From Candidatus Kuenenia stuttgartensis (GTDB taxonomy: Bacteria > Planctomycetota > Brocadiia > Brocadiales > Brocadiaceae): a DNA stretch of 32,000 nucleotides. Shown here in pieces: positions 1,772-32,000 of the stretch (the stretch's first letter is position 1; every line of letters starts with the position of its first letter). The position numbers and the translations under genes were made by a program. The notes beneath the pieces are model-generated. The model worked only from the letters and a program-made list of their open reading frames with translations, made no database searches and was not told the origin of the DNA. The stretch is from contig NZ_LT934425.1 in assembly GCF_900232105.1 (NCBI RefSeq), positions 1,770,001 through 1,802,000 on the forward strand, read 5' to 3'.

Positions 1772-1813
1772 GCAAATTGCAAATTGCAGATTGAGGACTG
1801 AGGACTGAGGACT
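1772..1813. repeat. Tandem heptamer array: GCAAATT x2, GCAGATT, GAGGACT x3
   Basis: Read directly: gcaaatt gcaaatt gcagatt gaggact gaggact gaggact. It lies just 3' of the radical-SAM gene. The segment 1779-1848 has a diverged second copy at about 18004-18060. Confidence 0.85.
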
Positions 1814-1817
1814 ATTT

Positions 1818-3689: not shown

Positions 3690-3701
3690 ACGTGTCCTTA
3701 A

Positions 3702-4793: not shown

Positions 4794-4842
4794 CTTGCTT
4801 TAACACTCTTTAAAAATAGTTCTGTTTTTCACCTTTTCATCC

Positions 4843-6771: not shown

Positions 6772-6774
6772 GGG

Positions 6775-7272: not shown

Positions 7273-7364
7273 GGCAATGTTTTAAAAATATTCAATCGTA
7301 TCCTTGCAGAAAGATGCAGGGTGCTTTCCCCTGCAATGTTCATCGTTCACTCTAAGCTGGCATA

Positions 7365-7527
7365 GCCGGAAATAAAAAATACGAAACAAATTCTAATGAC
7401 AAAATGATTTGAAATTCTAAACAAATGCATCTTTCGTATCTCGCATTTCATGCTTCATATTGTTGTATGTTTTGGATTTGTTTTGAATTTTATACTTTGT
7501 TATTAGAATTTGTTTCGTATTTCCGGC
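7365..7527. repeat. 163-bp long imperfect palindrome (MITE-like) in the mreC-mreD spacer
   Basis: The left arm gccggaaata(aaaa)atacgaaacaaattctaatgacaaa pairs with the right arm tttgttattagaatttgtttcgtatttccggc. Inner segments (aaattctaaacaaat / atttgttttgaattt) extend the hairpin. No ORF is present. Confidence 0.65.
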
Positions 7528-7611
7528 TTGTCCATGCGGGGGAATTGTAATTTACTGTAACACTTTCGTCTGGGGAACGAGCAGCAACCGTTTATATCAA
7601 ATGTTTCTCCC

Positions 7612-9478: not shown

Positions 9479-9587
9479 TTTTATTCTCTGGAAATGTACC
9501 CCCGCAGCAGTGCTTATTTTCTGCAAGTATAATAAATATAATAGTTAACAATTAAATCAGGATTATACGTTTATTATTTACAGAATG

Positions 9588-11201: not shown

Positions 11202-12403
11202 AGGTTATCGAGAAGAATAATATCAATCAATTGTCCTTTGGAAAGTGTTTCTGCTTCTTCAGGAATAATAAGAAGGCAATTCGCCTTTGTCGTTGCCAAT
11301 AAGTCAGCGGAACCATGCCATTCAACAGGAGAAACAGACCATGTGTTTTCTTTCCATTGACACCGTGCAGGGCGAAACTCGCGGCGTCTTCTTTTCGTGG
11401 AAATATCCGTTTCCAACAATGCCGCTACCGTTGTTCTGCTCAAAGAAGAAAAACCCATTAATTTCCGTATCGCCGGATAGATAAACAATTCGAACGTAAC
11501 CAGTGAAGCAACAGGGTTCCCGGGCAGTGCAAAAATCAATGTTTTGTCCTTTTTCCCGAAGATAACGGGTTTTCCCGGCCGTAACGCCACCTTTTCAAAA
11601 TAAATGCGCACCCCTGCTTCTTTCAAAACATCTCCGACAAGATCATATTCTCCCATTGAAACCCCGCCGGAAAGAATCAGGACATCCTTCTGCAGCCCCC
11701 GCGTCATTATCTCCACAATGTCTTCTTTCCTATCTCCGGCAATGCCCAGTATTTCAACCCCGGCATTCATTCGCCTTGCCTGTGCTGCCAGGGAATAACT
11801 GTTGCTGTTTCTTATTTGTACAGGAGACGGTTTTTCATCAACGTTTACCAGTTCATTCCCTGTAGAAATGATGCCAACGGCAGGGGCAGGATATACTTTT
11901 ACAACAGACTTTCCCACTGTTGCGAGTATCCCTATTTCCTGTGGACGAATCTGCATCCCTGCATGAAGAACTATTTGCCCGATTTGTATATCCTCGCCAC
12001 GGTTGGAAATATTGGCTCCGGTTTTAACAGATTTCGATATTTTTACCCGGTCTTCTTCCCCGGTATCGTCCGTATCCTCAAACCTGACTACCGCATCCGC
12101 ACCTTCCGGAACGGATGCGCCGGTCATAATTTTAGAAACACACCCCTGCGATACCTTCTTTGCAGGCATATCTCCCGCCGCAATATTCTCAATGATTTTT
12201 AATACGACGGGCGCGGTTTTCGTATCTTCCGCAATCACAGCGTATCCGTCCATGGCAGAACGATTGAAGGGGGGCATGTCGATGTCGGACCTTACGTCTT
12301 CGGCAAGACAAAAACCCCGTGCGTCCTCAAAGTACACCTCTGTGGGCGCTAAAGGGCTTACATTTTCAATAATAATTTTCTTTGCTTCATCTACTGAAAT
12401 CAT
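11195..12403 (-). CDS. moeA: Molybdopterin molybdenumtransferase
   Basis: 402-aa ORF with MoeA hallmarks: PPFNRSAMDGYAV, the ILSGGVSMGEYD MoCF-binding motif and PGNPVAS. Confidence 0.9.
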   Translation of the reverse strand: MISVDEAKKIIIENVSPLAPTEVYFEDARGFCLAEDVRSDIDMPPFNRSAMDGYAVIAEDTKTAPVVLKIIENIAAGDMPAKKVSQGCVSKIMTGASVPEGADAVVRFEDTDDTGEEDRVKISKSVKTGANISNRGEDIQIGQIVLHAGMQIRPQEIGILATVGKSVVKVYPAPAVGIISTGNELVNVDEKPSPVQIRNSNSYSLAAQARRMNAGVEILGIAGDRKEDIVEIMTRGLQKDVLILSGGVSMGEYDLVGDVLKEAGVRIYFEKVALRPGKPVIFGKKDKTLIFALPGNPVASLVTFELFIYPAIRKLMGFSSLSRTTVAALLETDISTKRRRREFRPARCQWKENTWSVSPVEWHGSADLLATTKANCLLIIPEEAETLSKGQLIDIILLDNLC

Positions 12404-13740: not shown

Positions 13741-15752
13741 CTAGCGTGAGTTTATCACGAAATAAGGTGTAAGACAAAGACATCAAGTTGCAATCCAATG
13801 ATTTGTATCGGGTTGCGACTTTTTTTGTCTAAAAAATTATGTATACACTGAATAATACTATATTTATATTGCATTATATGCCTGTATATACTATTATACA
13901 CGGAGTATTAATCTATTACGTATACACTAACAACTAATAGCCATGGCTACCATTCAATCTAAAAACTCCAGAGGTTATAAATATTGGTATATTGTCGAAT
14001 CGCGGCGCGTTAACGGCAAGCCCAGGCCCATCGTCCTGGCCTATCTTGGCAAGGCAGACGATTTATTAAAACAACTGCAAGGTCTTACCGAAAAATTACG
14101 GCTCAAATCTTATTCACATGGCGCGGTAGCCGCATTGCTAAGTGTGGCCAATGCCCTGGACGTCCCTTCCGTGATTAATAAATATATAAAGTCGCCACGG
14201 CAGTATTGTGCTAAAAAACCTGTTCGAAATAATCTGACCGCCGGAAGTACCCTCTTGTTGGGTGCCGTGGGGAGAGTGTGTGTGCCTACCAGCAAAAGAG
14301 GATGGTGGGATTGGGCAAAGACGACTACTGCCGAATACTTACTCAGACACAGCTTGAGTAAAATAGACAGTCAGCATTTCTGGGATTTGATGGATGCACT
14401 TCCTGAAGAATCCATTGCAGAAATCGAGCGCGAATTAATTGAAAAGACATTTAAAACATACAACCTTCAAAGCGACACACTGTTTTTTGATACAACCAAT
14501 TTTTTCACGTATATCGACACAACTAATCTGCGATGCACTATTGCCCGGCGGGGGAAAAACAAACAAAAGCGATACGATCTCAGGCAGGTCGGGTTGGCGA
14601 TGGTCGTTACACGTAACGACATGATACCGTTGTTTCACCATACCTATCAGGGGAACATGGCGGATGCAAAGGTGTTCAGCGCGGTTCTTGAGACGATAAA
14701 AGACAGGATGACCGGATTAGGTTTCGACAGCAAAAAGCACACTATTGTTTTTGATCGTGGAAACAATTCCATGGACAATATGGCTATTGTAGAGAGATTG
14801 GCATTGCATTACGTTGGAGCGCTTACACCGTATCATCACAAGCAGTTGGTAGGGGATGCCATGTGTAATTTCAGGGAATATGACGTTGACGGCAGTAAGA
14901 TACAGGTGTACCATGACAAACGGGTTATTTGGGGGCAGGAAAGAACCGTTGTCGTATTTATTTCCGAGAAATTAAAGGTTGGGCAATTAAGGGGAATGTC
15001 TCAGTCTCTGGAAAAGGCAGAACATCAGTTAAAGCTCTTACAGCAGCATCTGTGTAATCCAAAGGGAAAGATGCGGGACAAAGAGGGTCTGGAGGATACG
15101 ATAAGAAGTGTAGTGAAATGTCAATTTGCGAAGGATGTTATCGATTGGTCGTTAAAAGAGGTATCTGAAGGCAAGTTTCAATTGAATTTTTCAATCGACC
15201 AGAAAAAGCTCGAAGAAATAGAAGGGGAACTGGGGTTCAGGATTCTTATGACAGACCATCACGATTGGGATACCGCGGACATTATAAAAGCCTACTATGG
15301 GCAATCAAAAATTGAACATGCCTTTAGAAATCTCAAGAACCCCTATCACCTTGCTTTAAAACCGCAATTTCACTGGACGGATCAGAAAATCAGGGTGCAT
15401 TTTTTTATTTGCGTCCTCGGATACCTAATGGCGGCGATTGTGTGGTATCAGGCAAAAGCGCACGCACAATTTAGTGGAACGTTAGATACCCTGTTAGACA
15501 CCCTTAATAATATAAGGCTTTCTGCTATGCTTGAAGAAACAAAGGCCAGAGGGAGAGTTAAGGCTACCTACAAATTGGAAGAAATGTCCGACAAGGAATC
15601 TCTGTTGATGAATGCGTTAGGCATTATGGATTTCCACAAACATCGGCTGAAACTTCAAGGACTCAGTGTATACAATTGATGTTGTGCTTAACGCATTGAC
15701 TGTATTTATGTTACGTTGCTTCATGCCTTATTTTGTGATAAACTCACGCTAG
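13741..15752 (+). mobile_element. IS1634-family insertion sequence, copy 1 (2012 bp)
   Basis: The terminal inverted repeats are ctagcgtgagtttatcacgaaataagg (13741-13767) and the reverse complement of 15726-15752, matching 26/27. There is a single 578-aa transposase. Three subterminal TATACAC motifs lie upstream of the ORF. No flanking direct repeat is visible. Confidence 0.88.
13943..15679 (+). CDS. IS1634-family (IS4-related DDE) transposase
   Basis: 578 aa. The N-terminus SKNSRGYKYWYIVESRRVNGKPRPIVLAYLGK is the typical IS1634-type opening. The C-terminal 257 aa are identical at the protein level to the ORF at 31225..31998. Confidence 0.88.
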   Translation: MATIQSKNSRGYKYWYIVESRRVNGKPRPIVLAYLGKADDLLKQLQGLTEKLRLKSYSHGAVAALLSVANALDVPSVINKYIKSPRQYCAKKPVRNNLTAGSTLLLGAVGRVCVPTSKRGWWDWAKTTTAEYLLRHSLSKIDSQHFWDLMDALPEESIAEIERELIEKTFKTYNLQSDTLFFDTTNFFTYIDTTNLRCTIARRGKNKQKRYDLRQVGLAMVVTRNDMIPLFHHTYQGNMADAKVFSAVLETIKDRMTGLGFDSKKHTIVFDRGNNSMDNMAIVERLALHYVGALTPYHHKQLVGDAMCNFREYDVDGSKIQVYHDKRVIWGQERTVVVFISEKLKVGQLRGMSQSLEKAEHQLKLLQQHLCNPKGKMRDKEGLEDTIRSVVKCQFAKDVIDWSLKEVSEGKFQLNFSIDQKKLEEIEGELGFRILMTDHHDWDTADIIKAYYGQSKIEHAFRNLKNPYHLALKPQFHWTDQKIRVHFFICVLGYLMAAIVWYQAKAHAQFSGTLDTLLDTLNNIRLSAMLEETKARGRVKATYKLEEMSDKESLLMNALGIMDFHKHRLKLQGLSVYN

Positions 15753-15873: not shown

Positions 15874-16496
15874 GTGCGGCAAAAAGCAAAGCTTCCGCTG
15901 CTAAGCGTATTGGAGACAGACATTCAAAGCCTGACCGGATTGCGATTGGATAGGGTACGCAGTCGGGAAGAGTCTGCATATTGGAATAGCTTGATTGATG
16001 AGTATCATTATCTGGGCTACAAGCCACTTCCTGGGGCGCAGGCAAGGTATTTGATTAGGTGGGACGGTGGAGATTTGGGGGCGATAGGTTTTTCCGCAGC
16101 GGCATGGAAAGTGGGAGTACGAGACCGGTGGATAGGGTGGGATGCGTTGACCCGCGAGAAGGGTTTACGCATGATTGTGAACAACGCGCGATTTTAGTAT
16201 TGCAAAATATCCGGGTGAAGAATTTGGCATCCCGTGTGCTTTCCCTTTGCGCGAGGCGAATACGAGTTGATTTTTTAGAGCCCTATAACTATGAACCGGT
16301 TCTTTTCGAGACATTTGTGGAAAAGGGTAGGTATTCAGGAGTCTGTTATCGCGCTGCGAATTGGCTTTACCTGGGAGATACAAAGGGAAGAGGGAAGTTA
16401 GACCGTTACCATATGCAGGGTGTTCCGGTCAAGGCCGTTTTTGTGTACCCGCTTGTTTGCAATCCCCGTCAGAGTTTGGCGGAGGTGGTGCAATGA
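15874..16496 (+). pseudogene. DUF4338 (DruA-like) protein gene, frameshifted and possibly 5'-truncated, upstream of a Tn5-like transposase
   Basis: Two ORF-track pieces (15874..16197 and 16059..16496) join into one DUF4338-like sequence: ...YHYLGYKPLPGAQARYLI...AAWKVGVRDRWIGWD...MIVNNARF | LVLQNIRVKNLAS...FETFVEKGRYSGVCYRAANWLYLGDTKGRGKLDR.... The join needs a 1-nt shift at the T-run 16192-16195. The frame is open only from 15838. Confidence 0.6.
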
Positions 16497-17917
16497 GCGA
16501 CTGGGGAAACGAGGAAACTGCAACGGCGGATTTTTCAGATGAGCGATTGAATAAACGGATGCGAGCGTTGCTGGATCGATTGGGTAGCAAGCCCGGAGCA
16601 AGTGTGCCAGCGGCCTGCAAGGGGTGGGATGAGACCATAGCCGCGTATCGTTTTTTAGATAATGAAAAAGTAACCGACCAAAAAGTATTATCATCACACA
16701 GGGACGCAACGCACAAGCGAATGGCGGGGCGTAAAGTGGTTCTCTGTGTTCAAGGCACGACGGAAATGGATTTTACGGGACGCAAACTCAAGGGGGCAGG
16801 GCCGCTCAGTATTCAGGAACGGATTGGTTTTTTCAACCACGTGACTCTGGCTGTTACGCCAGAGCGCCTTTGTCTGGGCGTGTTAGACGCAGAACTGTGG
16901 GTGCGCGACTTTGAAGACCGCAATAAAAATGACAAGCGCAAACAAAAGCCTATCGAGGAAAAGGAGAGTCATCGTTGGCTGGAAGGTTACCGTAGAGTCT
17001 GTGAGTTAAGCGAACAACTCCCCGGCACAATGCTCGTAAGTATTTCAGATCGGAAAGGTGATATCTACGAATGTTTTTGGGAGTCTGTGCGCATGGATGA
17101 GGGTAAGCGGGCGGAGTTTATAATTCGTGGTTGCCATGACCGAAGATTGCCGGAGAAGCTGGAAGATGGATGCTATAAAAAGTTGATGGAGGAGGTATCG
17201 GGAAAACCCATTTTGGGAGAGGTGGAATTCAAAATTCCCAAAACAGAGAACCGTTCCGCCCGAAGGGTGGTACAGTCGGTGAAGGCTTGCCGTGTTCGAC
17301 TCAAGCCTCCATATCGCAAAGGAGAAATGATGCCTGAAGTGGAAATCAATGTGGTGTTCGTCGAAGAGATCAATCCTCCAGGAGGAGGAGAGCCGATCGC
17401 ATGGTTGCTGCTCACCAGCCTCCCCATAGACACCTTCGGGCAAGCGTGTCTCGTGGTGGAATATTACCTTTGCCGATGGCAGATAGAGATGTATTTTAAA
17501 GTATTAAAGAGCGGTTGCAAGATAGAAGAGCGTCAATTGGAGACAGCGGAGCGTATCAAGCCGTGTATTGCTCTTTATATGATAGTGGCATGGCGGGTAT
17601 TGTTTGTTACCATGCTTGGAAGGGAATGCCCGGATTTGCCGTGTACAGCGCTTTTAGAGGATGATGAATGGAAACCCGTGTATATGATTGCCAAAAATGA
17701 AGCTCCACCCGAAACCCCGCCATCGCGCGTAGACTTTACCTTAATGGTATCAAGTCTGGGAGGATACTTAAATCGCAAATGCGATGGCCCACCAGGCCCA
17801 AAAACCATGTGGGTTGGCCTGCAGCGAATGGTAGACTTCACATTGGCATGGAAAGCCTTTGGGCCTGTGCAACCGAAAACACGGAATGGAAAAGATGTGT
17901 ATAAACATAAGGGTTGA
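16493..17917 (+). CDS. IS4-family, Tn5/IS50-like transposase
   Basis: The ORF-track frame is 16361..17917. The likely start is the ATG at 16493, after ggaggtggtgca, overlapping the DUF4338 stop as ATGA. The N-terminus WGNEETATADFSDERLNKRMRALLDRL...AAYRFLDN is Tn5-type DNA-binding. The DDE core includes YYLCRWQIEMYFKVLKSGC, and the tail GGYLNRKCDGPPGPKTMWVGLQRM is Tn5-like. The ends of this IS were not found. Confidence 0.85.
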   Translation: MSDWGNEETATADFSDERLNKRMRALLDRLGSKPGASVPAACKGWDETIAAYRFLDNEKVTDQKVLSSHRDATHKRMAGRKVVLCVQGTTEMDFTGRKLKGAGPLSIQERIGFFNHVTLAVTPERLCLGVLDAELWVRDFEDRNKNDKRKQKPIEEKESHRWLEGYRRVCELSEQLPGTMLVSISDRKGDIYECFWESVRMDEGKRAEFIIRGCHDRRLPEKLEDGCYKKLMEEVSGKPILGEVEFKIPKTENRSARRVVQSVKACRVRLKPPYRKGEMMPEVEINVVFVEEINPPGGGEPIAWLLLTSLPIDTFGQACLVVEYYLCRWQIEMYFKVLKSGCKIEERQLETAERIKPCIALYMIVAWRVLFVTMLGRECPDLPCTALLEDDEWKPVYMIAKNEAPPETPPSRVDFTLMVSSLGGYLNRKCDGPPGPKTMWVGLQRMVDFTLAWKAFGPVQPKTRNGKDVYKHKG

Positions 17918-19924: not shown

Positions 19925-20071
19925 TTATTTACCTCCTTCTTCATAAAGTGACAGCTCCGACTGACTTGCCTTGCGACAACTGATAATACGAATATTTGAA
20001 CTTCGCTCAGTATAAACCACTACCAACACATGACCCTTATCAGAGCTTCCGATGTCAATATTCCTCGGCAT
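19925..20071 (-). pseudogene. 5'-truncated BrnT (DUF497) ribonuclease toxin
   Basis: This 48-codon ORF falls below the track cutoff. MPRNIDIGSSDKGHVLVVVYTERSSNIRIISCRKASQSELSLYEEGGK matches only the C-terminal half of BrnT (…VV.TeR...IRIISaRkA...E...Y). The N-terminal ~45 residues are absent. Its stop lies 1 nt before the brnA ATG. Confidence 0.65.
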
Positions 20072-20083
20072 CGGGTAAAAACG

Positions 20084-20293
20084 TTATTTTATACAGAGTT
20101 CTTCCCAGAGGGATTGCCAGTCTTTTCCTTTTACCTGCATATCATCCTGTCTTGCTTTGCGCATGTTTTTTATAAACTCAGGATTTTGTGATAAAAGCCA
20201 GTCTTCAAGGTCTTCTTTTGTATCAGCGGTTTCAAAAACACTCAGTGGAAATGTAACTGTCTGCTTTTTTGATTTTTTCCTGGTTAATGCCAT
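20084..20293 (-). CDS. Small antitoxin-like protein (69 aa from the internal ATG)
   Basis: The ORF-track frame is 20084..20347. The likely start is the ATG at 20293, after aaaggaaaaattgc. The tail EDLEDWLLSQNPEFIKNMRKARQDD resembles the C-terminal tails of some type II antitoxins. No cognate toxin follows. Confidence 0.35.
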   Translation of the reverse strand: MALTRKKSKKQTVTFPLSVFETADTKEDLEDWLLSQNPEFIKNMRKARQDDMQVKGKDWQSLWEELCIK

Positions 20294-20408
20294 GCAATTT
20301 TTCCTTTCTTTTTCTTTATACACCTTCAGAATTAAAACCATCTGCAATCAGAATTCCACCGTCCAAAATCCTGACACAGCGAAAGCTTAACCATCTTTCA
20401 ACACAGAA

Positions 20409-20537
20409 TCAATAATCAATAATTAAGTATGGTGTCCCCAGAATTACCTCATGGCTGCCTTTTCGATTAATTTCTTTAAATTCCATCCGTTTTAAAGCTG
20501 CCAAAACCTCTCGTCCTGATAATATCTGGAGTTTCAT
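20409..20537 (-). pseudogene. hicA: 3'-truncated HicA mRNA-interferase toxin
   Basis: This 42-codon ORF falls below the track cutoff. MKLQILSGREVLAALKRMEFKEINRKGSHEVIL is the HicA N-terminal half up to the catalytic GSH. The sequence then runs into the 25-bp repeat at 20421-20445 (GTPYLIIDY stop). Its ATG overlaps the hicB stop as ATGA. Confidence 0.7.
20421..20445 (-). repeat. 25-bp inverted-repeat partner (right) of 18095-18119
   Basis: aattaagtatggtgtccccagaatt. It marks the exact point where hicA homology ends. Confidence 0.7.
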
Positions 20538-20734
20538 ATCGCCACTTCATAAACTTTGTGTTTACTGTTTTCTGTTAAGTCCTCGTCAGGTTCTAAATAT
20601 AATTCTATTGCTTCCCGAATATTCTGCAATGCCTCATCTTCTGTCCTTCCCTGACTCCAACAGCTTTTTAACGATGGACAATATGCAGCAAAGTAACCAT
20701 CTTCTCCTTGCTCCAGTATAACTTTTATTTTCAT
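20534..20734 (-). CDS. hicB: HicB-family antitoxin (UPF0150)
   Basis: 66 aa. MKIKVILEQGEDGYFAAYCPSLKSCWSQGRTEDEALQNIREAIELYLE is the classic HicB N-terminal domain pattern. Confidence 0.85.
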   Translation of the reverse strand: MKIKVILEQGEDGYFAAYCPSLKSCWSQGRTEDEALQNIREAIELYLEPDEDLTENSKHKVYEVAI

Positions 20735-21228
20735 ATCTTTTATTCTCCTCGTTGAGTTTTATTAATCTATCATATTTATCGAGTAGTCATGGCAATAGTC
20801 GTTGATTCTAATTCCTACCGCAGTTACTTTGATTTGGTATTCTGCCATCCAAAACTATCTCAAAATAACTGAAATCCACAACAATGACACGTCTCTTTGC
20901 CGTACTAAAACATTTATGAATATGGGGAAAGCAACCTTTTTCCTCTTTATTGGTTGAGTAACTGTTCTATTTCCTTTTCCAGTTCTTCTTTTCTTACTGG
21001 ATCAATAGTTTGTTGCCATATTTTTAAGAGGTTGCTTGATTCATAAATTTTTTGCCGTTCTTCGGGAGTAACTTCAATAGTATCGAGCAACGATTTTGCC
21101 TCATTTTGCATAATTTTTGGAAAAAACTTTAATACATCAAAGCTATCAAGACTAGCCTCTAGCGTGCTTTGGGCAAGAAGGACTTTTGCTATAGCTTTGC
21201 TGGCATCGGAAATTTTTTTCTCGGCTTG

Positions 21229-21735
21229 TTAGGCATGTTCTAAAGCCTTTTTCGCATCTTCACGCTCTTTTTTTGCTTCATTATATTGCCAATAAGCAAC
21301 AACTAAAAGAAAAATAGAAATGAACGTCGCAACATGATTAATATACTGGTTAAACCACTGGATACGCTTTTTCTGATAGTGCCCACAGTGAAAGCATATC
21401 TTTGCATTTTGTTTAATTTTCTCTTTGCAATAATAGCAGTCTACATTTTGATTTTCAGTAATTTGTTTTTTGTGATAATTGGTGTATCTATCAATCGGAT
21501 ATCTAATCGCCATAATAATCACAAAGACAACGATACCTGAAAATACTCCACCGTAATTATTGCACGTGATCTCAAGGAAAGCAGCGAATTCTGGCCTACT
21601 ATGAATTAAATAGTACAATAAGTAATCTCCAGGATAAAAACAAAGCCACTTAAACCACAACCACACGTCACTAATTGTGGTTGAGCCGCTACAGTTCATA
21701 TCCGCTACGAACCCCCATTCCCTTGGATCGGACAC
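21229..21735 (-). CDS. Membrane protein with a cytoplasmic zinc ribbon; the frame continues past an in-frame TAA to 20947
   Basis: 168-aa ORF with a GTG start after aggagacataataa. It has two TM helices, CYYC-x11-CFHC, a third TM helix and the start of a coiled coil. After the TAA at 21229-21231 the same frame stays open for 93 more codons (QAEKKISDASKAIAKVLL...EKEIEQLLNQ), ending at 20947. Confidence 0.55.
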   Translation of the reverse strand: MSDPREWGFVADMNCSGSTTISDVWLWFKWLCFYPGDYLLYYLIHSRPEFAAFLEITCNNYGGVFSGIVVFVIIMAIRYPIDRYTNYHKKQITENQNVDCYYCKEKIKQNAKICFHCGHYQKKRIQWFNQYINHVATFISIFLLVVAYWQYNEAKKEREDAKKALEHA

Positions 21736-21858: not shown

Positions 21859-21931
21859 TCCTAACTTTAAATTATGGGGTTTTGGTGGAGCGCCAGCGCA
21901 ACCAAAATCCCTCTTGAACAATTTGTTAGAT
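21859..21931 (-). other. attC-like structured recombination site (73 bp), candidate b
   Basis: The minus strand reads ATCTAAC-AAATTGTTCAAGAGGGATTTTGGT-TGCGCTGGCGCTCC-ACCAAAACCCCATAATTTAAA-GTTAGGA. The ends fit RYYYAAC and approximately GTTRRRY. AAATT/AATTT pair after a 3-nt bulge, followed by 6 extrahelical nt and an 11-bp stem. The loop shares CGCT..CGCTCC with candidate a. It begins 12 nt after the SIR2-like stop. Confidence 0.45.
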
Positions 21932-21942: not shown

Positions 21943-22836
21943 CTAATAATAAAGTTTTGAAAACCAGTCTTGAAGGTCTTTCAATGAGTCCGTTTTATAA
22001 TGCTCTCCATTTCTTAAGAACTTACCTTCAATAGAAACAGAATACTTCCATTCAAAAGTCCTTCTTGGCCAGATAGCTATAGATGATTTCCAAAAATCTG
22101 AATTAATAATACTATGCCCAAGAGGGAAATAATTTTTCCAACATTTAACAATTTCCTCTTGTTTTTTTATATCAATAATTTCCGCATGACAAAACTGTTT
22201 GAAATTATTTGTTGGTGTAGGATTCCAATTTTCAAGTAAAAGCTGACGAGCATTAAAATCTGTGGCTGGTCCAGAATAACCAAATATGGTTATTTGAAAT
22301 GCTTCTTTTAATTTTTCTGTAACCTTTTCCCAATCTCTTTTTATTAAATTATCATTAGTATAATCTTTATTTTCAACAGGATAAAATAGTTTGCTTTGTT
22401 TTAATGTTGTATTACATATTGTGCATATCTCAGATGGTACACCTAAAATATCATGCTCATTGCATGTTGCAAAAGCTACACAACCATGTAAAAAACGTAT
22501 ATCAGGTAACTTTGCTACATCTTTATTTCTTCTATAAGCTTGGATTAGGAATGGATCCCAATTAAATGTGGCAATAATGTCTTTTGAACGAAGTCCTAAT
22601 ACAAGATAATCATATATCGTTGGATAATCAGGTAAGTGCAAACTTTCAAAATAAGATACAATTGTTTTTTCAATTTTTAATAATTGAGAAGAATAAATGT
22701 CTTTTTGTTTAAGCCATGAAAATTGGCTTTCAAAGTTTCCAGGTGGCGGGCAAGCATTTTCCATTAACTCCTTCCACTCTGCAACTACCCCTTTTATATT
22801 GGGTAATTCGTCTTTCTCTTGTAACATTTTAACCAA
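21943..22836 (-). CDS. SIR2-like (SIR2_2/DUF4917-type) protein
   Basis: 297-aa ORF with a TTG start at 22836 or an ATG at 22827. The motifs occur in sirtuin order: DIIATFNWDPFLIQAY (TTNYD-like), IRFLHGC (HG), a four-Cys module C-x6-C-x13-CTIC in the position of the sirtuin zinc ribbon, and ITIFGYSGPATD (GYS..D). The N-terminal GAGxS NAD-binding loop is not evident. The gene is visibly AT-rich; a sampled line is about 28 percent GC. Confidence 0.5.
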   Translation of the reverse strand: MVKMLQEKDELPNIKGVVAEWKELMENACPPPGNFESQFSWLKQKDIYSSQLLKIEKTIVSYFESLHLPDYPTIYDYLVLGLRSKDIIATFNWDPFLIQAYRRNKDVAKLPDIRFLHGCVAFATCNEHDILGVPSEICTICNTTLKQSKLFYPVENKDYTNDNLIKRDWEKVTEKLKEAFQITIFGYSGPATDFNARQLLLENWNPTPTNNFKQFCHAEIIDIKKQEEIVKCWKNYFPLGHSIINSDFWKSSIAIWPRRTFEWKYSVSIEGKFLRNGEHYKTDSLKDLQDWFSKLYY

Positions 22837-22856
22837 TGTATTTATTGCAATTTTTA

Positions 22857-23288
22857 TTATTTAACGGCTTGGGTAACGGGCGCGCCGTAAGGAGCATCCT
22901 GTTGACCTAATGGTGAAGTCACTTTCTTTCCAATGGTTGCGAGGATGAAATCTTCCAGCTTTTCTCTCAATTCCGGTTCATTTTCCCATACGATGTGATT
23001 GTATTACCTTGTATCGAAATTGATATTCTGCGAGTCATCATGTCGGACACACCAGATGACAGGCAGCCCTAAGCCGTATGCAAAACCTGCCTCATAATAG
23101 ACTCCAGGCTTTTGCTGCGTTACATCCGCTACAATAAATCCAGAGTTTCGTATCGCGGCACTGGTTTTCGCATCAATTCGTTCAAGATGCGGCTACGAGT
23201 CCACCCGATATGGCCGATAACCCATGGCTTCAATGTCCGGTGCTATTGCATTCTCGTAGACGGGGAGCAAGGTCTTATCAAATGACAT
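22857..23288 (-). pseudogene. Nucleoside 2-deoxyribosyltransferase-like (NDT/Rcl-fold) gene with two in-frame stop codons
   Basis: It is missing from the ORF track because of the stops. The minus-strand frame reads (KTKAFVA)MSFDKTLLPVYENAIAPDIEAMGYRPYRVDS-TAG(23195-23193)-PHLERIDAKTSAAIRNSGFIVADVTQQKPGVYYEAGFAYGLGLPVIWCVRHDDSQNINFDTR-TAA(23006-23004)-YNHIVWENEPELREKLEDFILATIGKK.... FIVADVT..P.VYYEAGFA.GLG.PVI is the NDT/Rcl signature. The gene ends 20-30 nt before the SIR2-like start. Confidence 0.6.
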
Positions 23289-23438: not shown

Positions 23439-23735
23439 TCATGACTTGGGGAAAATCTCTCGTTCCTCCAGCGCACGCCAAAGCCCTTTTAGCGCGTCAT
23501 CTTTGTTAGAGTAGAAGGCCGATTCTCTGACGCGGAAGAACTCCCAGCCGCACCGCTTTAATTGCAGCTGGCGTTGCATATCCTCTTCGTATCGGTTGGG
23601 GCCATGCCAATGGTCACCGTCACACTCGACTGCCAGGCGCGCGTTGCCTCCTTCTATAACAATATCGATTCGCTTGCCAGCGATTTCATACTGCGGAATG
23701 ACGTTGAAACCCCGCCTCGCCAACTCCAATGCAAC
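23439..23735 (-). pseudogene. Helicase-nuclease gene, piece 3 of 3: C-terminal DUF559/Vsr-like (REase_MTES_1575-type) endonuclease domain
   Basis: LELARRGFNVIPQYEIAGKRIDIVIEGGNARLAVECDGDHWHGPNRYEEDMQRQLQLKRCGWEFFRVRESAFY is a DUF559-type nuclease pattern. The frame joins piece 2 exactly once IS 23736-25587 and one ATGCAAC copy are removed. Confidence 0.85.
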
Positions 23736-25587
23736 GGATGTTCACCCCAAGTCAAAAAACAAAAGTGCCGTAAAAGCCTTATATTTATTGACTTTTACGC
23801 CGAACAGCAAGCTTTTTTCTAGTGACTACCCGTATGTTCCGGCTTGGCAATACTTCTGGCAACTTTATCTGTAATGCCTCTAATAATTCATGTGATTGTT
23901 GCCGCGGACGCGGGATCTTCTGGCAACTAGCTTTTTGGCCTTTGATTGTTACTTCCATCGAACAAATGGTCGTCAATTGTGCGAGACCTTCCTCTACCGT
24001 CAAGTCAAAATTCTTCCACGCTCTGCGCAGCCTTCGAATTATCATGTACGCAAGCATTACCACAAACACATGTCCCCGTGTACTATCCTCCTTTCTTACA
24101 TACACCGGACGAACCTCCAAATTCACCGTCTTACAGTCCCGAAACGCCTTCTCCACTTCCGTTAAATCCTTGTATCGTTCATGTACCAGATTGGTATCCG
24201 CCTCGTTCTCCTCAAGATCAGTCTTGATTGCGTAACAACCATCAAGGTATGATGCCTCCTTTAATGCTTCCTCATCTCTCTCTATCTTTAGCGTCCTATC
24301 CTCTTCTTTTATCTGCACCCACCCATCAAGTTTCAATCTCGTTAGCCTTTCCCTTGTTGTTTCCAGTGCCTTCGATACTGACGACTTAGGATGTTCCTTC
24401 AGATAACTGTTCTTCTTCGCGATGTATTTCTCTATACTCTGTAATTTTGATACACGGGTCTTTGACATCTCTTCCGCCCTTACCGGATTGCGCCTCAGAA
24501 TATATCGAACCTCATCATCCTTTATCTCGCAGAGCTTTTCTTCGAACAATCCTAATTGCAGTATCCCTTTATTTATCAACGACTCTATCTGCGGCTTGGT
24601 TATCGCCGTTATGTAATGAAACCCTTCCGGTAAACTTTCGATTTGCACCGTCTTGATCATCCCACGATCTCCTACAATCGTTACATCTTTGCATCCAAAC
24701 CGCTCTAATACCTTCTTTACCTGAGATTCAAAGGTCTTCGGATCCTGGGTGTTGCCCCTAAATACTTCTGTTGATACCGGCTCCCCGGATTCATCACAAA
24801 GCATACCGATCACTATCTGTTTTTTCCTCTTTTTGCCGTCACGATTATACCCGTACTCACCAAAATGATTCGACTTCCCCTCTAAATAACTGCTCGTCAC
24901 GTCATACAAAAACAACTTCGGCTTATTGCCTCCTCGTCTTAACTCAAACAGCTTTCGCTCTATCTTTGCCTGATTCTCTGACAACCATGACAAATTATCG
25001 TACAGATTGTTCTCGTCAAACCCACGCTTCATATCCAGGACGTCACCCGCAGCATGTATCTGCGCCAGCCTTACTGCAGACAGTCTTGACCCCTGGCCTA
25101 TTACCCTTGCCATTACTTGCCAAAGCGCCAGCTTTCCTTCAAAGTCCTTTCCCAATGCCTCTTCTATCCCTAATTCCTTTGCCACTTGGTACACGCTCCA
25201 CGCTGCTCCCACAGACAAACCCTCATGGAGTTTCACCGATTCTGACAATGCGCCCAATGCACAGAGATCGTCTTTATGTGCGAGTGCAAGTCTTATCGCT
25301 TCAATCTCCAGGGGAGTGCAATTCGACAGATTCGCAATGGTGCGTTTCTTGACCTTCCCATCCTCACGGTACGATTCCCGCAGAAGGGTAGATCGATAGA
25401 TTTTTTTACCGGATTTTGACTTGTTCTCTACAATATGCATGTCCACCATTGTACAGATAACAACCATTATCCGTCAAGTATATTGTCGGATAATAACAAT
25501 ATATTAGTGACTACATATTTATTAAAAATACAGCCTTAACAAACTATGTATTAAGCACTTATGCGTTTTGGCAGGGGTGAACATCCG
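23736..25587 (-). mobile_element. Second IS1634-family element (1852 bp) inserted in the helicase-nuclease gene
   Basis: The ends are ggatgttcaccccaagtcaaaa (23736-) and the reverse complement of ...ttttggcaggggtgaacatccg (-25587), sharing a GGATGTTCACCCC core. A 7-bp direct repeat ATGCAAC lies at 23729-23735 and 25588-25594. Confidence 0.85.
23785..25467 (-). CDS. IS1634-family transposase (different lineage from the 578-aa one)
   Basis: 560-aa ORF. The likely true start is MHIVENKSKSGKKIYRSTLLRESYREDGKVKKRTIANLS at 25440, an IS1634-type N-terminus. A DDE region follows. Confidence 0.85.
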   Translation of the reverse strand: MVVICTMVDMHIVENKSKSGKKIYRSTLLRESYREDGKVKKRTIANLSNCTPLEIEAIRLALAHKDDLCALGALSESVKLHEGLSVGAAWSVYQVAKELGIEEALGKDFEGKLALWQVMARVIGQGSRLSAVRLAQIHAAGDVLDMKRGFDENNLYDNLSWLSENQAKIERKLFELRRGGNKPKLFLYDVTSSYLEGKSNHFGEYGYNRDGKKRKKQIVIGMLCDESGEPVSTEVFRGNTQDPKTFESQVKKVLERFGCKDVTIVGDRGMIKTVQIESLPEGFHYITAITKPQIESLINKGILQLGLFEEKLCEIKDDEVRYILRRNPVRAEEMSKTRVSKLQSIEKYIAKKNSYLKEHPKSSVSKALETTRERLTRLKLDGWVQIKEEDRTLKIERDEEALKEASYLDGCYAIKTDLEENEADTNLVHERYKDLTEVEKAFRDCKTVNLEVRPVYVRKEDSTRGHVFVVMLAYMIIRRLRRAWKNFDLTVEEGLAQLTTICSMEVTIKGQKASCQKIPRPRQQSHELLEALQIKLPEVLPSRNIRVVTRKKLAVRRKSQ

Positions 25588-27422
25588 ATGCAACATCAAT
25601 CTCAAACCAACTTTCAAATGGCGCGGGGGGATTTACAACTCGTCGATTATCTTGAAAGGTGCGCCGCTCAAGCTCATTACGCTCAATTCCTGCAATCTGT
25701 TGTGGTTTCGTGTTCTCGAAGAAACTAAGGAGTCGTCGACGAAGACAGGAGGCGCTGAGTTCGTCACAAGTGACAGAGTGGAACAAAATCATCTGGTCGC
25801 GGGCACGGCTGGCGGCAACATTGAACCGCCGTTCGTCCGAAGCCTTCGTTAGAGGGCCAATTCTTTCATTGTTGGCCGCAACAAGCGATAGCAACATAAT
25901 GTCTCGCTCATCACCCTGAAAACTGTATGGATTACCGCAGACCAAATGCCGCTGCTCCATTTCCTCGGCGCCCAACTGTTCAAGCAATTGGTTCTCAATC
26001 AAAGCCGCCTGTGCTTCGCCCTGAAGCACAACCACACCCATCGACTTGTCGTCATACCTGGTGTCGCCACACAGTTCGACGATCTTTTTAACGATGGCTT
26101 CGGCCTCAGGGCGATTGATCGTCCGGTTGTATGAACCTTCGCGATACCCTCCATTTACAAAAACAAGTTCAAGGGGAGCTAATCGGTTAGGCCCATATTG
26201 CCTCAAGGGAATCAACGGCGTATCTGAATAGCAAAGGTCATTGCTGAAACGAATAATCTCCGGCATGCAGCGGAAGTGCTCGCGTAGGGTAATTCGTTGC
26301 GTTCCATAGCGAAGTTTACCGTGATCAAACAGGCTGCTTTCGACATCGAATGACGACTTAAATTGGAAATCATGTAGGAATTCCTCCATCAAACGATGCA
26401 CGGCATCTCGAGGCAAGCCTACAGCAGCCGGGCTGATCTGCTTATCATCGCCAACAATTAATACCTTCTTGCCTAGATAAAATAGAGGAAGTGCCTCTAC
26501 TCCACATTGCGATGCCTCATCTATGATAATGACATCAAACATACCAGGTATGGGATCCACCGTGTCCCAAACTCGGTGGAGAGGCATAACCCATGCCGGA
26601 ACCGCCTCACGGCACTCATTGAGGTGCTGTTGAGCTTCACGCCTGTGGCGTGGCGCGTGTTTTCCTGTGCCTTTACCAAGCCGCCTCATAGACTGCTGCC
26701 AGGCTTCCATATGGCGTCGATGATTGCTATTGAGTCGGGAAAAGCAAAATGACCAGGCATGGAGCGAGGCGAGTTTAGCTATAATGGCGTTGATCTCGTC
26801 CTCGATCTGTTTGGCGTGCTTGGCGAGGGCAGGGATGTCCTCCTGCCGTATGTATTCCTCAATCCAATATTGCGCCTGCGCCCAATGCCAAGCGTTTCCA
26901 ATTTGTTGAAGTCGCTCATCCCAATATGGCTCGTCACAGGTTCGCATCAATTCATCCGTGAGACGTGGGAGTCGGTGGCTCATTTCCGAGAGGTATTCAT
27001 CCATCTTCTGAAGGCGCTGACGCTCCTTTTCCAATTCCTGAATCTTGCTCGCGGCATTCGCGAATCCATCTACATTGCGGTCACGAATCGCGTGTAGCAA
27101 TTCGTTCGTTACCGGATGTGCGTTGCCCATGGCGGCAACGTACGATACCGGAGCCTCAATGCTTTGTATTTCTTCAGCTACAAGCCGCTTGCGGAGACGG
27201 ATATGCGCAAGGCCGCATGACGCGATTATCCTTTCAACCTGAGATTCGTCAGCCCAAAAGGGTTCGCTTATAGCCTGAAACTGGCGTATGATCCCACGGC
27301 ATTCTCCAATGAGCGTTTCAAGCGACAAGGCATTTTCAAGAGCGTCACACAGTGATTTGAGCGCAGTCAATTGTAGAGCATAAGGGCCTTGAATCTTATC
27401 GGTTCGCCCCACCCAGAACCCC
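25588..27422 (-). pseudogene. Helicase-nuclease gene, piece 2 of 3: SF1 helicase motifs II-VI
   Basis: The ORF-track frame is 25559..27412. Its last 9 codons are IS-derived and its 'M' is a GTG. It carries VIIIDEASQ (II), LIVGDDKQISP (III), REHFRCMPEIIRFSN (IV), FQGDERDIMLLSLV (V) and RRFNVAASRARDQMILF (VI), as in the Upf1/DNA2-like AAA_11/AAA_12 type. Confidence 0.85.
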
Positions 27423-28806
27423 CATAAGCGCTAACTTGTTTTATTGACAAATTTTATTCATCATGGTATTTTTATGTTAATTATCCCGCTAATCACTCTA
27501 TAGGAGGATAAAGCCATGATGAGAGAAGATTGGGATCTTCTAAGAACTTTCTTCCCAAACGATTGGAAAAGTTTAGCCGTTGATACAAATGCTTTAAAAG
27601 GCTTGCGCAAGGATAAATCTGAAGAAAAGCTTCTTCGAACATTATTAATTCATTTAGGATGTGGCTATTCATTGCGTGAAACAGTAGTTCTAGCCAAGCG
27701 TGCTAACTTAGCAGATTTATCCGATGTTGCCTTATTAAAGCGATTAAAAAAGAGCAAAGAATGGCTATATAAATTATGTTTATCTTTATTCCGTGAGCGT
27801 GGCCTCCAAATTAATAAACGGAATAATTTTCATCTTCGCTTATTTGATGCAACAACAGTAAAGGAACCTGGGAAAACAGGAAGTCTTTGGCGCATTCATT
27901 ATAGTATTGAGGTTCCTTCATTATCTTGCGATTTCTTTAAACTTACGGGAACTGAAGGAGAAGGCACAGGAGAATCTTTTCGGCAGTTTCCGATGAAAAA
28001 AGATGATTATATTATAGCTGACAGAGGTTACTGTACTGGCCAAGGAATTCATCATGCAACAAGGAAAGGCGCTTATCTTAGCGTTAGAGTTAATTCGCAA
28101 TCTCTACGGATATTCGGCGAAGAAAAGAAACCCTTTCCTTTATTGAAAGAAATCCAATATTTAAAAAGACCCCTTGCTATAAAATCATGGAACGTTTTTA
28201 TTCCAAACGTTGATAATACTGAATATGTCAAAGGTCGTCTTTGTATAATACGCAAAACAGAAGAAGCCATTAAAATAGCTCATAAAAAACTTAAAAGACA
28301 TGCAAGCAAAAAGGGCATTGAACTAAAACCGGAGACCCTTATTTATGCCAAGTACGTAATAGTATTCACAACGTTTCCTGAAAATCAATTTACCGCTTTT
28401 GATATCTTAGAATGGTATCGAGTTCGATGGCAAATTGAACTGGTCTTTAAAAGATTTAAACAAATAGCACAATTTGGACACTTACCTAAATACGATGATG
28501 ATAGCTCAAAAGCTTGGCTTTATGGCAAACTATTCGTTGCTCTTTTGACAGAAAAACTAATAGATTTTGCTACGTCTTTTTCCCCCTGGGGATACTTCAT
28601 TGTCAAGCAAGAAGACTAAAAGCAAATGGCGTGAATTTGCTTTTATGCTTAATCAAGTAAAACGGGCTATAGAACCAGCGTTATCATTACAGGAAGTTCT
28701 TAAGTGCTGGAATGACATTGCTTGTTCTTTAGCAGAAAATACAAGAATCCGAAAAACACAGATATCAAAATACTTCGAGCATACCTAAAACAAGTTAGCG
28801 CTTATG
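27423..28806 (+). mobile_element. IS4-family insertion sequence (1384 bp) inserted in the helicase-nuclease gene
   Basis: It has perfect 21-bp terminal inverted repeats: cataagcgctaacttgtttta (27423-27443) and taaaacaagttagcgcttatg (28786-28806). An 11-bp direct repeat CCCAGAACCCC lies at 27412-27422 and 28807-28817. Confidence 0.9.
27516..28788 (+). CDS. IS4-family DDE transposase, with a frameshift near its 3' end
   Basis: The 367-aa ORF 27516..28619 carries DDE_Tnp_1-type motifs (LEWYRVRWQIELVFKRFKQ). The +1 frame is open from 28564 to 28788 (…SKWREFAFMLNQVKRAIEP…). The only homopolymer in the overlap is T5C5 at 28577-28586. Confidence 0.75.
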
Positions 28807-31114
28807 CCCAGAACCCCCACGCCTTCTCACACTCGATCCGGACATGCAATGCATCGGAAAGATTTGAAAAATGTTCGACAGCGGAACAAGACCGTCCTCC
28901 AATACGCACAGTCTTGATTACATGGAGGCGCTCTTTGACCTCTTTGGGCCGAAATGGGCCCCAACCCAGCTTCCCTCCACCCTCCATGTGCTCTTTCAGT
29001 TTTCTGGCATCTTCTCGTAGCGTACTGATATTGGTATTGTCTGGGAAAACAATACTTGTATTGTCAGCGATTGTGACTACAGTTTCGACTGATGCAATAG
29101 CATCTCCCGTGATACGGAAAAGCTCGCGCCACAAGGATGAATTACCTCCCAAGATATCGCGTAATGCATCTGCCATCCATGAATGGGGCGACGCCATCAT
29201 CCTTCTTCGTGCGTCGCGAAAATTGGAGAAAGCGTCACGAATCGTTTCGATGGTCGCGAAATTGCCCTTTGATATCAGATCGGCGATACGTTCATCTGCC
29301 CCGATTACCGAGTTGCTTTCGTCCTCAGTCGCTTTCACCTCGTTCTCAGCAAGATTGGCCAACTGTTCTGTGGAAGGCAAGGCATTTGGCCATTCAAGGC
29401 TCAATTCTTGACGCTTTTCTGGTGCAAAATAACGAATGTCCTCAAGAAAATCACGCAAATCGCTGGCGGATAACTGACAGGTCTTGTCCAAGGGGATGGT
29501 GTCCGCGAACCATTCGTAAACGCTTCTGTCACGGTTGACGGCCTCCGCTATTCGGGCTGCCGTACCTCGATATGTTCCGTCCGCAATGGATTGGGATTGG
29601 GTTTCGGATTCCCTGATATCGCGGAGCCGTCGATTAACCTTGGCTTTCTCCTGCCGGAGGCGTTGGAGTCGATCTTCTAGTTCCGTGCGCTCATGTTTAG
29701 CCCGATCCTCTTTCCATTCATCATTCTTGCGAAGTATGCCGCCGACGCTGGATTCCAAAGATCGCCGCTCCTCAAGACCGCTGCCAAGCAAGTTGATGCA
29801 GAGAGGGCGTAATTCTTTCGGGATAAGTCCTTCAAGTACCTGAAGAGCACGCGGCGTCTTGGCGGTGATAAGCGTTCGCTGGCCAGTGGCGAGCAAATGG
29901 CAAATGAGATTCGCGATAGTATGAGATTTTCCCGTACCGGGAGGCCCCTGCACAAGAACGCCATTTTCCGCACGAATCTTGTCAACGATACGTCGTTGAT
30001 CTTCGTTCGATGGCTTTGGGAAGAAAACTTCTCCATCGAATGCGCTGCTTGATTCTTCTAAACCATCGCCCGTTTCGTAGTCATTCTTGTTGGAAATCTC
30101 GGCAAGGTCCGCGAATAAGTCAGGGATACCTTCGGCATTTTCGATCCGCCCCTTGATCCGTTTCAAGGTTTCGGTAAGACCCTTTGCGGAGCGCTTTCGT
30201 AGGATCAAAGCGGGAGCATATTCGACAATTGGCTTCGCTGATGCACGGATGCTTTTCGCCGCCAAGGAGTCGTCATACTCACCTTGGGAGTCGATCGAAT
30301 GCACCAACGCCTTAAGCACGCTTTCAATGCCCCCTTTTTCCCATGGATCGTCTTCTTCTCCTGCCAACGAAGACTTCGCAGTTTCTTCGGCGCGCGGCGG
30401 TTGTTCCTCTACATCCAACATGTCGAATTCTGGCCGGAGTTTTGCCCCTTCGGTATGAGGCCGAACGGTGAATTTACCCAGATGAGCTTCAAACTCCAAA
30501 ATGGCATCCGCGACAACCAAGTGACGTCTGACGCGCTGCCCAGTGGGCGTCTGCCATGTAAGCAGACCCAACCCAAGTACGAGTTCGTATTCCTCGCCAA
30601 GCCTGAGTTGCTCTTGATGAATGGCAAAAAGCTCGGAATAGACACGGTGGATTTTTTCCCACGCATTGTGATCTTCCGTCCATGGTAGCCACTTGTCTTC
30701 AACATAACGTTCCCATGCCCGCAGAACTTCGGGATGTTCGCCAAGGCGTTCGGTGCGTGGCATGGTTTCCGGCTGATGCGATCCTTCGCGCCAGTCGGGA
30801 TTTTGGACTTGTTGGGTGATTTCCGGGAGGAGTTCCGGCAAATCACTCTTATTGCAGAGCGCCGACTGGTTAAGCCAGTCTCTGCATTGAATGGGAATGG
30901 CATGCAATTCTGGCTCGCGCCGGTTTTGCACTTCCAGCCATTCATCCATCTCATGTTCCTCATCGCTCCCCCATGCCTGCGTAAAGCACCCCCGCTCATG
31001 TGGAACGTTTGATACCCAAAGGACATTCTCGTATTCGGCAATGTCGCTGATCAGCTTCGCGCGAAGTAAAGCAAGTCGTGTCAAATAGTCGAGAAGCCTA
31101 ACGGCTTTCTGCAC
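28807..31114 (-). pseudogene. Helicase-nuclease gene, piece 1 of 3: N-terminal region plus Walker A
   Basis: The ORF-track frame is 28802..31114, with a GTG start and a last codon that is IS-derived. It carries VLVQGPPGTGKSHTIANLICHLLATGQRTLITAKT (motifs I/Ia), then a long coiled-coil-like insert. The frame stays open upstream to the IS boundary at 31150. Confidence 0.85.
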
Positions 31115-31150
31115 CCTATGGCTATCTGCCTGTTGATCGTTTAAGAGTTC

Positions 31151-32000
31151 CCTAGCGTGAGTTTATCACAAAATAAGGCATGAAGCAACGTAACATAAAT
31201 ACAGTCAATGCGTTAAGCACAACATCAATTGTATACACTGAGTCCTTGAAGTTTCAGCCGATGTTTGTGGAAATCCATAATGCCTAACGCATTCATCAAC
31301 AGAGATTCCTTGTCGGACATTTCTTCCAATTTGTAGGTAGCCTTAACTCTCCCTCTGGCCTTTGTTTCTTCAAGCATAGCAGAAAGCCTTATATTATTAA
31401 GGGTGTCTAACAGGGTATCTAACGTTCCACTAAATTGTGCGTGCGCTTTTGCCTGATACCACACAATCGCCGCCATTAGGTATCCGAGGACGCAAATAAA
31501 AAAATGCACCCTGATTTTCTGATCCGTCCAGTGAAATTGCGGTTTTAAAGCAAGGTGATAGGGGTTCTTGAGATTTCTAAAGGCATGTTCAATTTTTGAT
31601 TGCCCATAGTAGGCTTTTATAATGTCCGCGGTATCCCAATCGTGATGGTCTGTCATAAGAATCCTGAACCCCAGTTCCCCTTCTATTTCTTCGAGCTTTT
31701 TCTGGTCGATTGAAAAATTCAATTGAAACTTGCCTTCAGATACCTCTTTTAACGACCAATCGATAACATCCTTCGCAAATTGACATTTCACTACACTTCT
31801 TATCGTATCCTCCAGACCCTCTTTGTCCCGCATCTTTCCCTTTGGATTACACAGATGCTGCTGTAAGAGCTTTAACTGATGTTCTGCCTTTTCCAGAGAC
31901 TGAGACATTCCCCTTAATTGCCCAACCTTTAATTTCTCGGAAATAAATACGACAACGGTTCTTTCCTGCCCCCAAATAACCCGTTTGTCATGGTACACCT
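31151..32000 (-). mobile_element. IS1634-family insertion sequence, copy 2 (inverted, runs off the window)
   Basis: From 31151, ctagcgtgagtttatcacaaaataaggcatgaagcaacgtaacataaatacag... matches the reverse complement of the right end of copy 1 (15660-15752). Confidence 0.9.
31225..32000 (-). CDS. IS1634-family transposase, C-terminal part (copy 2, partial)
   Basis: The ORF-track ORF 31225..31998 matches the last 257 residues of the 578-aa transposase at 13943..15679 exactly, apart from its artificial first M. Confidence 0.9.
   Translation of the reverse strand, partial: VYHDKRVIWGQERTVVVFISEKLKVGQLRGMSQSLEKAEHQLKLLQQHLCNPKGKMRDKEGLEDTIRSVVKCQFAKDVIDWSLKEVSEGKFQLNFSIDQKKLEEIEGELGFRILMTDHHDWDTADIIKAYYGQSKIEHAFRNLKNPYHLALKPQFHWTDQKIRVHFFICVLGYLMAAIVWYQAKAHAQFSGTLDTLLDTLNNIRLSAMLEETKARGRVKATYKLEEMSDKESLLMNALGIMDFHKHRLKLQGLSVYN

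Follow-up and report, generated by a model that had tools for sequence, protein, structure and literature searches.

Two neighbouring genes on the minus strand of Candidatus Kuenenia stuttgartensis contig NZ_LT934425.1 were analysed within a window of 32,000 nt (positions 1,770,001 to 1,802,000 of the contig; all coordinates below are those of the window unless another contig is named). One is predicted to encode a protein of the SIR2 fold, and the other is the remnant of a gene for an N-glycosidase-like protein of the NDT/DNPH1/TIR fold. The comparisons described here indicate that two accessory genes, each normally solitary and acquired independently of the other, very probably came to lie side by side by chance, in a decaying defence-type island riddled with insertion sequences (IS), and that both copies are damaged and make up no working system. 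The NDT-like gene would have been killed by two nonsense mutations before the window strain and a sister strain, Candidatus Kuenenia sp. Bin_40, diverged; the SIR2-like gene is full length in the sister strain, and the window strain would have lost 39 codons of it, among them those for the dinucleotide-binding loop and for the first strand (beta1) of the Rossmann fold. The two genes are as follows.

21943..22836, minus strand: predicted SIR2-fold open reading frame (ORF), 297 amino acids (aa) from a TTG start; a deletion allele with 117 nt lost in frame, junction at 22813/22812.
22857..23288, minus strand: pseudogene of the NDT/DNPH1/TIR fold, with an in-frame TAG at 23193-23195 and TAA at 23004-23006.

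A sequence-only reading of this region had described the genes as a two-gene NAD-targeting cassette. The arrangement that it reported, two minus-strand ORFs 20 to 30 nt apart, is correct, since the NDT-like frame ends 20 nt before the TTG start of the SIR2-like ORF, or 29 nt before an ATG. A real cassette of the Thoeris kind, in which a TIR/NDT-fold sensor or enzyme works with a SIR2 effector and the sensor has been silenced here, would agree with the shared orientation and short spacing, with the occurrence of both folds in known NAD-targeting defence systems, and with the presence of a Hhe/ProA-like helicase gene and toxin-antitoxin genes in the same island. We nevertheless regard such a cassette as extremely improbable, in the first place because the adjacency is limited to the Kuenenia lineage. 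Of at least 582 genome matches carrying a SIR2-like homologue, the 80 best were taken for a census, with up to 10 kb of flanking DNA on each side translated in six frames, and these loci were searched with a hidden Markov model (HMM) of the NDT-like family. Matches were found at two of the 80 loci: in the sister contig (L006), where the genes are adjacent, the lineage is the same and the same two stop codons are present, and at L036, where the match lies 9.6 kb away. Within this sample the two homologues are thus adjacent nowhere besides the 98-99% identical L006. Five loci of three NDT-like homologues contained no SIR2-like gene.

Neither family has a conserved partner. Clustering of all genes within 4 kb of the SIR2-like gene at the 80 loci revealed no conserved neighbour, the largest cluster being a mixed set of helicases present at 8 loci, on either strand and at distances of 1.8-3.5 kb. 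In the annotated contexts of six members of the SIR2-like family the gene stands alone, and what surrounds it varies. The helicase gene upstream of the Kuenenia pair was also considered as a conserved partner and was rejected, as it recurs at only one of the 80 loci (L060).

Base composition also separates the two genes. The pair had been described as much more AT-rich than its neighbours, which holds for the SIR2-like ORF (30.6% GC overall, and 20% at third codon positions), which is lower in GC than any other 900-nt stretch of the window, at about 2.5 standard deviations under the mean, but not for the NDT-like remnant, whose 46.9% GC is above the window mean of 42.6%. The fragments of the upstream helicase gene have a GC content of 51-54%. 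A compositional break therefore exists, but it runs between the two genes, which differ by 16 points, and not around them. Because the break falls between the genes, separate acquisition is favoured over transfer as one cassette, and the two were probably not acquired together.

The state of the genes in the sister strain points the same way. Contig L006 (NZ_JBDIWA010000034.1, Candidatus Kuenenia sp. Bin_40) was recovered by the genome scan for SIR2-like homologues and is 98-99% identical to the window across the whole neighbourhood. In L006 the SIR2-like gene is intact, and its NDT-like neighbour has already become a pseudogene; since the one is intact beside a dead copy of the other, the SIR2-like gene appears to be independent of the NDT-like gene. 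Thoeris itself consists of ThsA, a SIR2-SLOG effector, and ThsB, a TIR sensor. The window resembles it in having a SIR2-fold gene adjoining a TIR/NDT-fold gene, but Pfam and PADLOC searches recognised no ligand-sensing domain, be it SLOG, Macro or another, in the SIR2-like protein, there is no PADLOC match to ThsA or ThsB, the adjacency is not conserved, and the NDT-like partner is dead where the SIR2-like gene is intact. Literature searches gave nothing specific on NDT proteins paired with SIR2 proteins, nor on any gene of this family described as a short, solitary SIR2 defence. The evidence indicates that the locus is not an NAD-targeting defence pair of a new type, and a false lead is thereby removed.

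Comparison with L006 also showed that the SIR2-like gene of the window, which the sequence-only reading had taken to be intact, carries two lesions. In L006 the gene is a full-length ORF of 339 aa, beginning MLQEKNVFLKPSIGSRPHVVILGAGASRAAMPQGDKYGKKIPLLDELPNIKG..., and its product carries RPHVVILGAGASRAAMPQGDK, including the motif GAGAS. Positions 10019-10135 of L006 are missing from the window; this is exactly 117 nt, or 39 codons, and the reading frame is kept, the window protein passing from MLQEK directly to DELPNIKG at the junction. The deleted segment comprises strand beta1 (model residues 27-31), the GAGAS NAD-binding loop and the next helix, and it includes P26-S36, G43, D44 and P51, which are invariant or nearly so, and with them the central strand of the Rossmann sheet. 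The lack of an obvious GAGxS loop, which had been noted from the window alone, is explained by this deletion, since the loop is present in the family and in L006 and was taken out together with beta1. In addition, a GAG to TAG change at 21943-21945 has removed the last 6 codons (EEKFDI). Only five insertions or deletions separate the window and L006 assemblies in approximately 8.6 kb, and because such differences are rare, a sequencing artefact is an unlikely source of the 117-nt deletion. The product of the window allele would be expected not to bind NAD+, and probably not to fold normally.

It could be argued that the shortened allele still functions, as a regulator, a dominant-negative partner or a protein with a new activity, and that selection has kept its frame. 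The frame is indeed open, the protein outside the deletion is 100% identical to the L006 product, and 21943-22812 differs from L006 by 1 substitution in 870 nt, where the neighbouring segments show 8-17 per kb and 20062-21228 shows 37 per kb, so that the flank rate would predict approximately 10. However, a deletion is in frame by chance one time in three, the residues lost include invariant or nearly invariant ones and the central Rossmann strand has gone with them, and neighbouring genes of the same strain have likewise suffered IS insertions and nonsense mutations. A functional short allele is accordingly considered very unlikely. The two closely related anammox (Kuenenia-like) strains instead provide a natural pair of intact and deleted alleles, and the window set beside L006 catches a defence island in the course of its erosion, in which IS elements, nonsense mutations and a deletion all take part.

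The SIR2-like character of the 297-aa protein, first proposed from its motifs, is upheld by modelling of its family, and the protein is predicted to be a member of a SIR2-fold family. The probable true start of the ORF is the ATG at 22827, which gives 294 aa. More than 600 homologues were obtained by sequence search, every one labelled hypothetical, and a search of cluster representatives placed 1333 clusters at 50% identity in the family (E <= 1e-3), most of them approximately 335 aa in length. The protein modelled was the full-length homologue P0003 (74% identical to the window ORF), rather than the deleted window allele, with an alignment of 103 sequences; the AlphaFold 2 (AF2) model had a predicted local distance difference test score (pLDDT) of 89 and a predicted template modelling score of 0.89. 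In a Foldseek search of the PDB the top match was the SIR2 protein of the SIR2-HerA anti-phage complex (8w9l, E 1.3e-8; 8wld; 8suw), followed by DSR2 (8yg1) and dozens of classical sirtuins, with a probability of 1.00 and template modelling (TM) scores of about 0.5. All of the top 50 PDB matches were SIR2 proteins or sirtuins, and 122 matches were obtained at E <= 1e-3.

Motifs and secondary structure of the family follow the sirtuin order: beta1-GAGAS, beta2-NWD, beta3-HG, the Cys/His cluster and beta4-YSG. The motifs named in the sequence-only reading (TFNWD, LHG, a cysteine cluster and GYSGPATD) are all present in the window ORF, in alignment columns that are invariant or nearly so. The catalytic TxNxD and HG elements are kept as TFNWD (N92, D94) and LHG (H117, G118), which are invariant in two family alignments. 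In the putative zinc module, for which four cysteines had been proposed, the invariant residues are C125, H128, C138 and C141 (window numbering), with short strands modelled around them; the putative ligand set appears to be Cys3His and not four Cys. Invariant columns in the numbering of P0003 include G32, G34, A35, N137, D139, H162, C170, H173, C183 and C186, and S36, in the GAGAS loop, is nearly invariant. The usual N-terminal stretch of the family, ...RPHVVILGAGASxAAxPxGDK..., is absent from the window copy. The C-terminal region of the family is rich in tryptophan (FWxSxIAxWPRRTxEWK). Searches of Pfam (SIR2, SIR2_2), NCBIfam and PADLOC with the window protein, the L006 protein and 103 homologues gave no SIR2 match, and sequence and profile searches of PDB chains with the family gave only noise.

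The NDT/Rcl-like fold given to the upstream gene, and its silencing by two nonsense codons, were both confirmed. The frame at 22857..23288 translates as MSFDKTLLPVYENAIAPDIEAMGYRPYRVDS, a first stop, PHLERIDAK...FIVADVTQQKPGVYYEAGFAYGLGLPVIWCVRHDDSQNINFDTR, a second stop, and YNHIVWENEPELREKLEDFILATIGKK..., and homology to the family extends further upstream to approximately 23351 (KTKAFVAMSF). In the family alignment the first stop falls at a variable K/S/E column and the second at a nearly invariant Gln (CAA to TAA). Both are common to the window and L006, and L006 has a third stop in the tail. With its stops masked, the frame scored 24 bits against Pfam Nuc_deoxyrib_tr (PF05014), under the gathering threshold of 28.8 bits, and matched the C-terminal part of the PADLOC 'TIR effector' model at 2.8e-11. 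Its homologues (n=134) are mostly 120-250 aa long; several have precomputed PF05014 matches, NCBI gives some of them the name nucleoside 2-deoxyribosyltransferase, and the top match, P0121, is 81% identical.

An AF2 model of a 246-aa family member (pLDDT 90.6) has a helical, winged-helix-like N-terminal domain, which is absent from the window remnant. Its C-terminal domain matches the structures of NDT (8pqq), DNPH1/Rcl, the CMP N-glycosidase BcmB, and the TIR domains of SPARTA, SARM1 and SpbK; a profile search with the family gave weak matches to DNPH1. The family thus resembles NDT, DNPH1 (Rcl), BcmB and TIR proteins in the fold of this domain, in the weak PF05014 and PADLOC matches and in the invariant Glu of GVYYEAG, and differs in the added winged-helix-like domain of its full-length members; the window copy is below the Pfam threshold and disrupted. 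We conclude that the remnant is a genuine pseudogene of an NDT/TIR-fold N-glycosidase-like family. The homologue P0133 (L084, 6001-7566) is of the full-length 246-aa form, with both the winged-helix-like and the NDT-like domain, and lies in a mobile island that also holds AbiE, IS21 and an integrase. A co-oriented gene 82 nt downstream of it encodes a 247-aa protein without a Pfam match, and these two could form a two-gene unit of their own. The 247-aa protein was tested as a possible SIR2-like protein and is not SIR2-like.

Judging from its fold, motifs and genomic context, the intact SIR2-fold protein most likely acts alone as a consumer of NAD+, either as a NADase or as an ADP-ribosyltransferase, and plausibly serves as a single-gene abortive-infection defence. 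Members of the family occur on plasmids of Legionella, Vibrio and Stenotrophomonas, beside CRISPR-Cas of type I-F in Legionella (pLPL) and beside SLATT and McrBC in Vibrio. The genome neighbours of the family include LmuB, SoFic, AriA, Mads, restriction-modification genes and Cas1, and the family was not found in the phage collection. This undescribed family of solitary proteins of about 335 aa, with at least 1300 clusters in many phyla, may possibly represent a new single-gene NAD+-depleting anti-phage defence, of which the window allele would be naturally inactivated and the sister Kuenenia allele active; we put this forward tentatively, the evidence for a defence role being only suggestive. 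A widespread solitary SIR2-fold family that lacks a curated model and is often found among defence genes and mobile elements is a reasonable candidate for a minimal sirtuin-type NADase. In the context of P0003 (the closest full-length SIR2-fold homologue, from a Smithella metagenome-assembled genome; L001/L002, 9260-13330) a co-oriented gene for a 1356-aa tetratricopeptide repeat (TPR) protein lies 210 nt downstream, and PemK, RelB/YafQ and Gp49-type toxin-antitoxin genes flank P0003. No conserved TPR partner emerged from the neighbour clustering of the 80 loci.

Several points weigh against the interpretation given here. The census is limited to 80 loci, the best among 582 or more genome matches. 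As no curated HMM recognises the family, the SIR2 assignment is drawn from motif order and a structural prediction (TM about 0.5). The near-absence of substitutions in the SIR2-like ORF relative to L006 may be due to a recent exchange between the strains, to AT-rich DNA mutating little, or to chance. As the deletion was in frame and left the ORF open, residual or altered function of the window allele is formally conceivable. Finally, PADLOC matches are alike in proximal and distal neighbours of the family, with no clear gradient, and some homologues lie among housekeeping or metabolic genes. The last two observations would suit a sirtuin-type protein deacylase or ADP-ribosyltransferase with a housekeeping or regulatory role, whose window copy is dispensable and decaying, as would the family's retention of a catalytic His and a putative zinc module, both typical of sirtuins that modify proteins, and the lack of a PADLOC match or of copies in phages. 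We consider this unlikely, in view of the patchy single-gene distribution of the family in variable regions with IS elements, toxin-antitoxin, restriction-modification and CRISPR-Cas genes, LmuB, AriA and SoFic, the top structural matches to anti-phage SIR2 proteins and not to deacetylases, and the strongly atypical GC content of the Kuenenia gene.

Among described defence proteins, the SIR2 of SIR2-HerA (Nezha) is the closest structural relative of the solitary SIR2-fold family; it is similar in size (340-400 aa) and shares with it the Rossmann core and the GAGxS, TxNxD and HG motifs. However, the two are only 13-14% identical with no HMM cross-match, neither a HerA gene nor any other conserved neighbour is present at the 80 loci, the family has its own Trp-rich C-terminus, and the window copy has no NAD loop. 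In DSR1 and DSR2, too, a SIR2 NADase encoded by one gene makes up the defence, and the structural matches noted above include DSR2. DSR proteins are approximately 1000 aa long with a large C-terminal sensor region, unlike the present family, which at about 335 aa has no recognised sensor domain.

An attC-like site had been reported to follow the two genes, and a structure of this kind is present immediately downstream of the SIR2-like ORF.

21859-21931 (73 nt), minus strand: imperfect hairpin ('attC-like'), with 16-nt arms at 21876-21911 extended by CTAAC.../...GTTAG.

The possibility that both genes, or the SIR2-like gene alone, form an integron-type gene cassette closed by an attC site would be in keeping with the 73-nt hairpin, its ATCTAAC...GTTAGGA bounds and its start at the SIR2-like stop codon, and with the small co-oriented AT-rich ORFs around it (19.6-22.9 kb). 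A scan for R''/R' motifs with mutually pairing ends found this single-copy hairpin to be the only such site in the 32 kb, and motif pairs as such were no commoner than in shuffled sequence (10 observed, 14.9 expected); there is no array. The R' motif departs from the consensus GTTRRRY at its last base, and the folding z-score is -1.6. Pfam searches detected no tyrosine recombinase (integrase) among the window ORFs of at least 250 aa, of which a 560-aa and a 257-aa ORF matched no family, and the same motif-plus-pairing scan found no such site downstream of the SIR2-like homologue at the 79 other loci. Rfam and tRNA scans of the window returned nothing. An integron cassette is thus highly improbable, and the hairpin is better read as a 3' stem-loop, or as a structure that arose by chance, than as a recombination site.

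The two genes lie well inside the island. Positions 1-12400 are a housekeeping block (KdsB, a radical-SAM enzyme, RodA, PBP2, MreC, MreB, Lnt and MoeA), and from approximately 12800 onwards the window is rich in transposases and small toxin-antitoxin-like ORFs. Upstream of the NDT-like remnant, two insertion sequences cut the helicase gene into three pieces, arranged as follows.

23439..23729, minus strand: last fragment of the helicase gene, with the C-terminal REase_MTES_1575/DUF559 domain; the gene is intact in L006.
23736..25579, minus strand: insertion sequence with a 560-aa transposase, terminal inverted repeats GGATGTTCACCCC and a target duplication of about ATGCAAC; absent from L006.
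25580..27424, minus strand: middle fragment of the helicase gene (AAA_11/AAA_12), from L006 comparison and Pfam.
27425..28806, plus strand: second insertion sequence, with a DDE_Tnp_1 transposase of 367 aa, inverted repeats TAAGCGCTAACTTGTTTTA and target duplication CCCAGAACCCCCA; absent from L006.
28807..31155, minus strand: N-terminal fragment of the helicase gene, from L006 comparison and Pfam.

In L006 the helicase gene is single and intact (4904-9391) and encodes a 1495-aa superfamily 1 (SF1) helicase with AAA_11/AAA_12 and a C-terminal REase_MTES_1575/DUF559 domain. This architecture is shared with the anti-phage proteins Hhe and ProA, but the NCBIfam matches (ProA 9.9e-64, Hhe 2.5e-39) are both far under the curated equivalog cut-offs, and the window copy is split in three.

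Downstream of the SIR2-like gene, L006 has an intact gene (11214-12002) for a 262-aa zinc-ribbon protein with hydrophobic stretches. The window copy carries a CAA to TAA change at codon 169, which leaves ORFs of 168 aa and 54 aa at 21229-21735 and 20947-21111 (minus strand). Because this nonsense mutation and the IS insertions are found in the window and not in L006, erosion of the island appears to be faster in the window strain than in its sister. Within 20 kb of the window there are at least four transposases of IS type; two further transposase genes, at 13943-15679 and 16361-17917, encode a DDE_Tnp_1 protein and a Tn5-like protein (Tnp_DNA_bind, Dimer_Tnp_Tn5) and sit at the border of the housekeeping block and the island. 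At 20409-20734 (minus strand) there is a HicB-like ORF (66 aa) with a short HicA-like ORF (42 aa), the 3' end of which is changed by a 7-nt tandem duplication, ATTGATT, at approximately 20413 relative to L006. A second copy of window positions 20450-20928, 96% identical, is present in L006.

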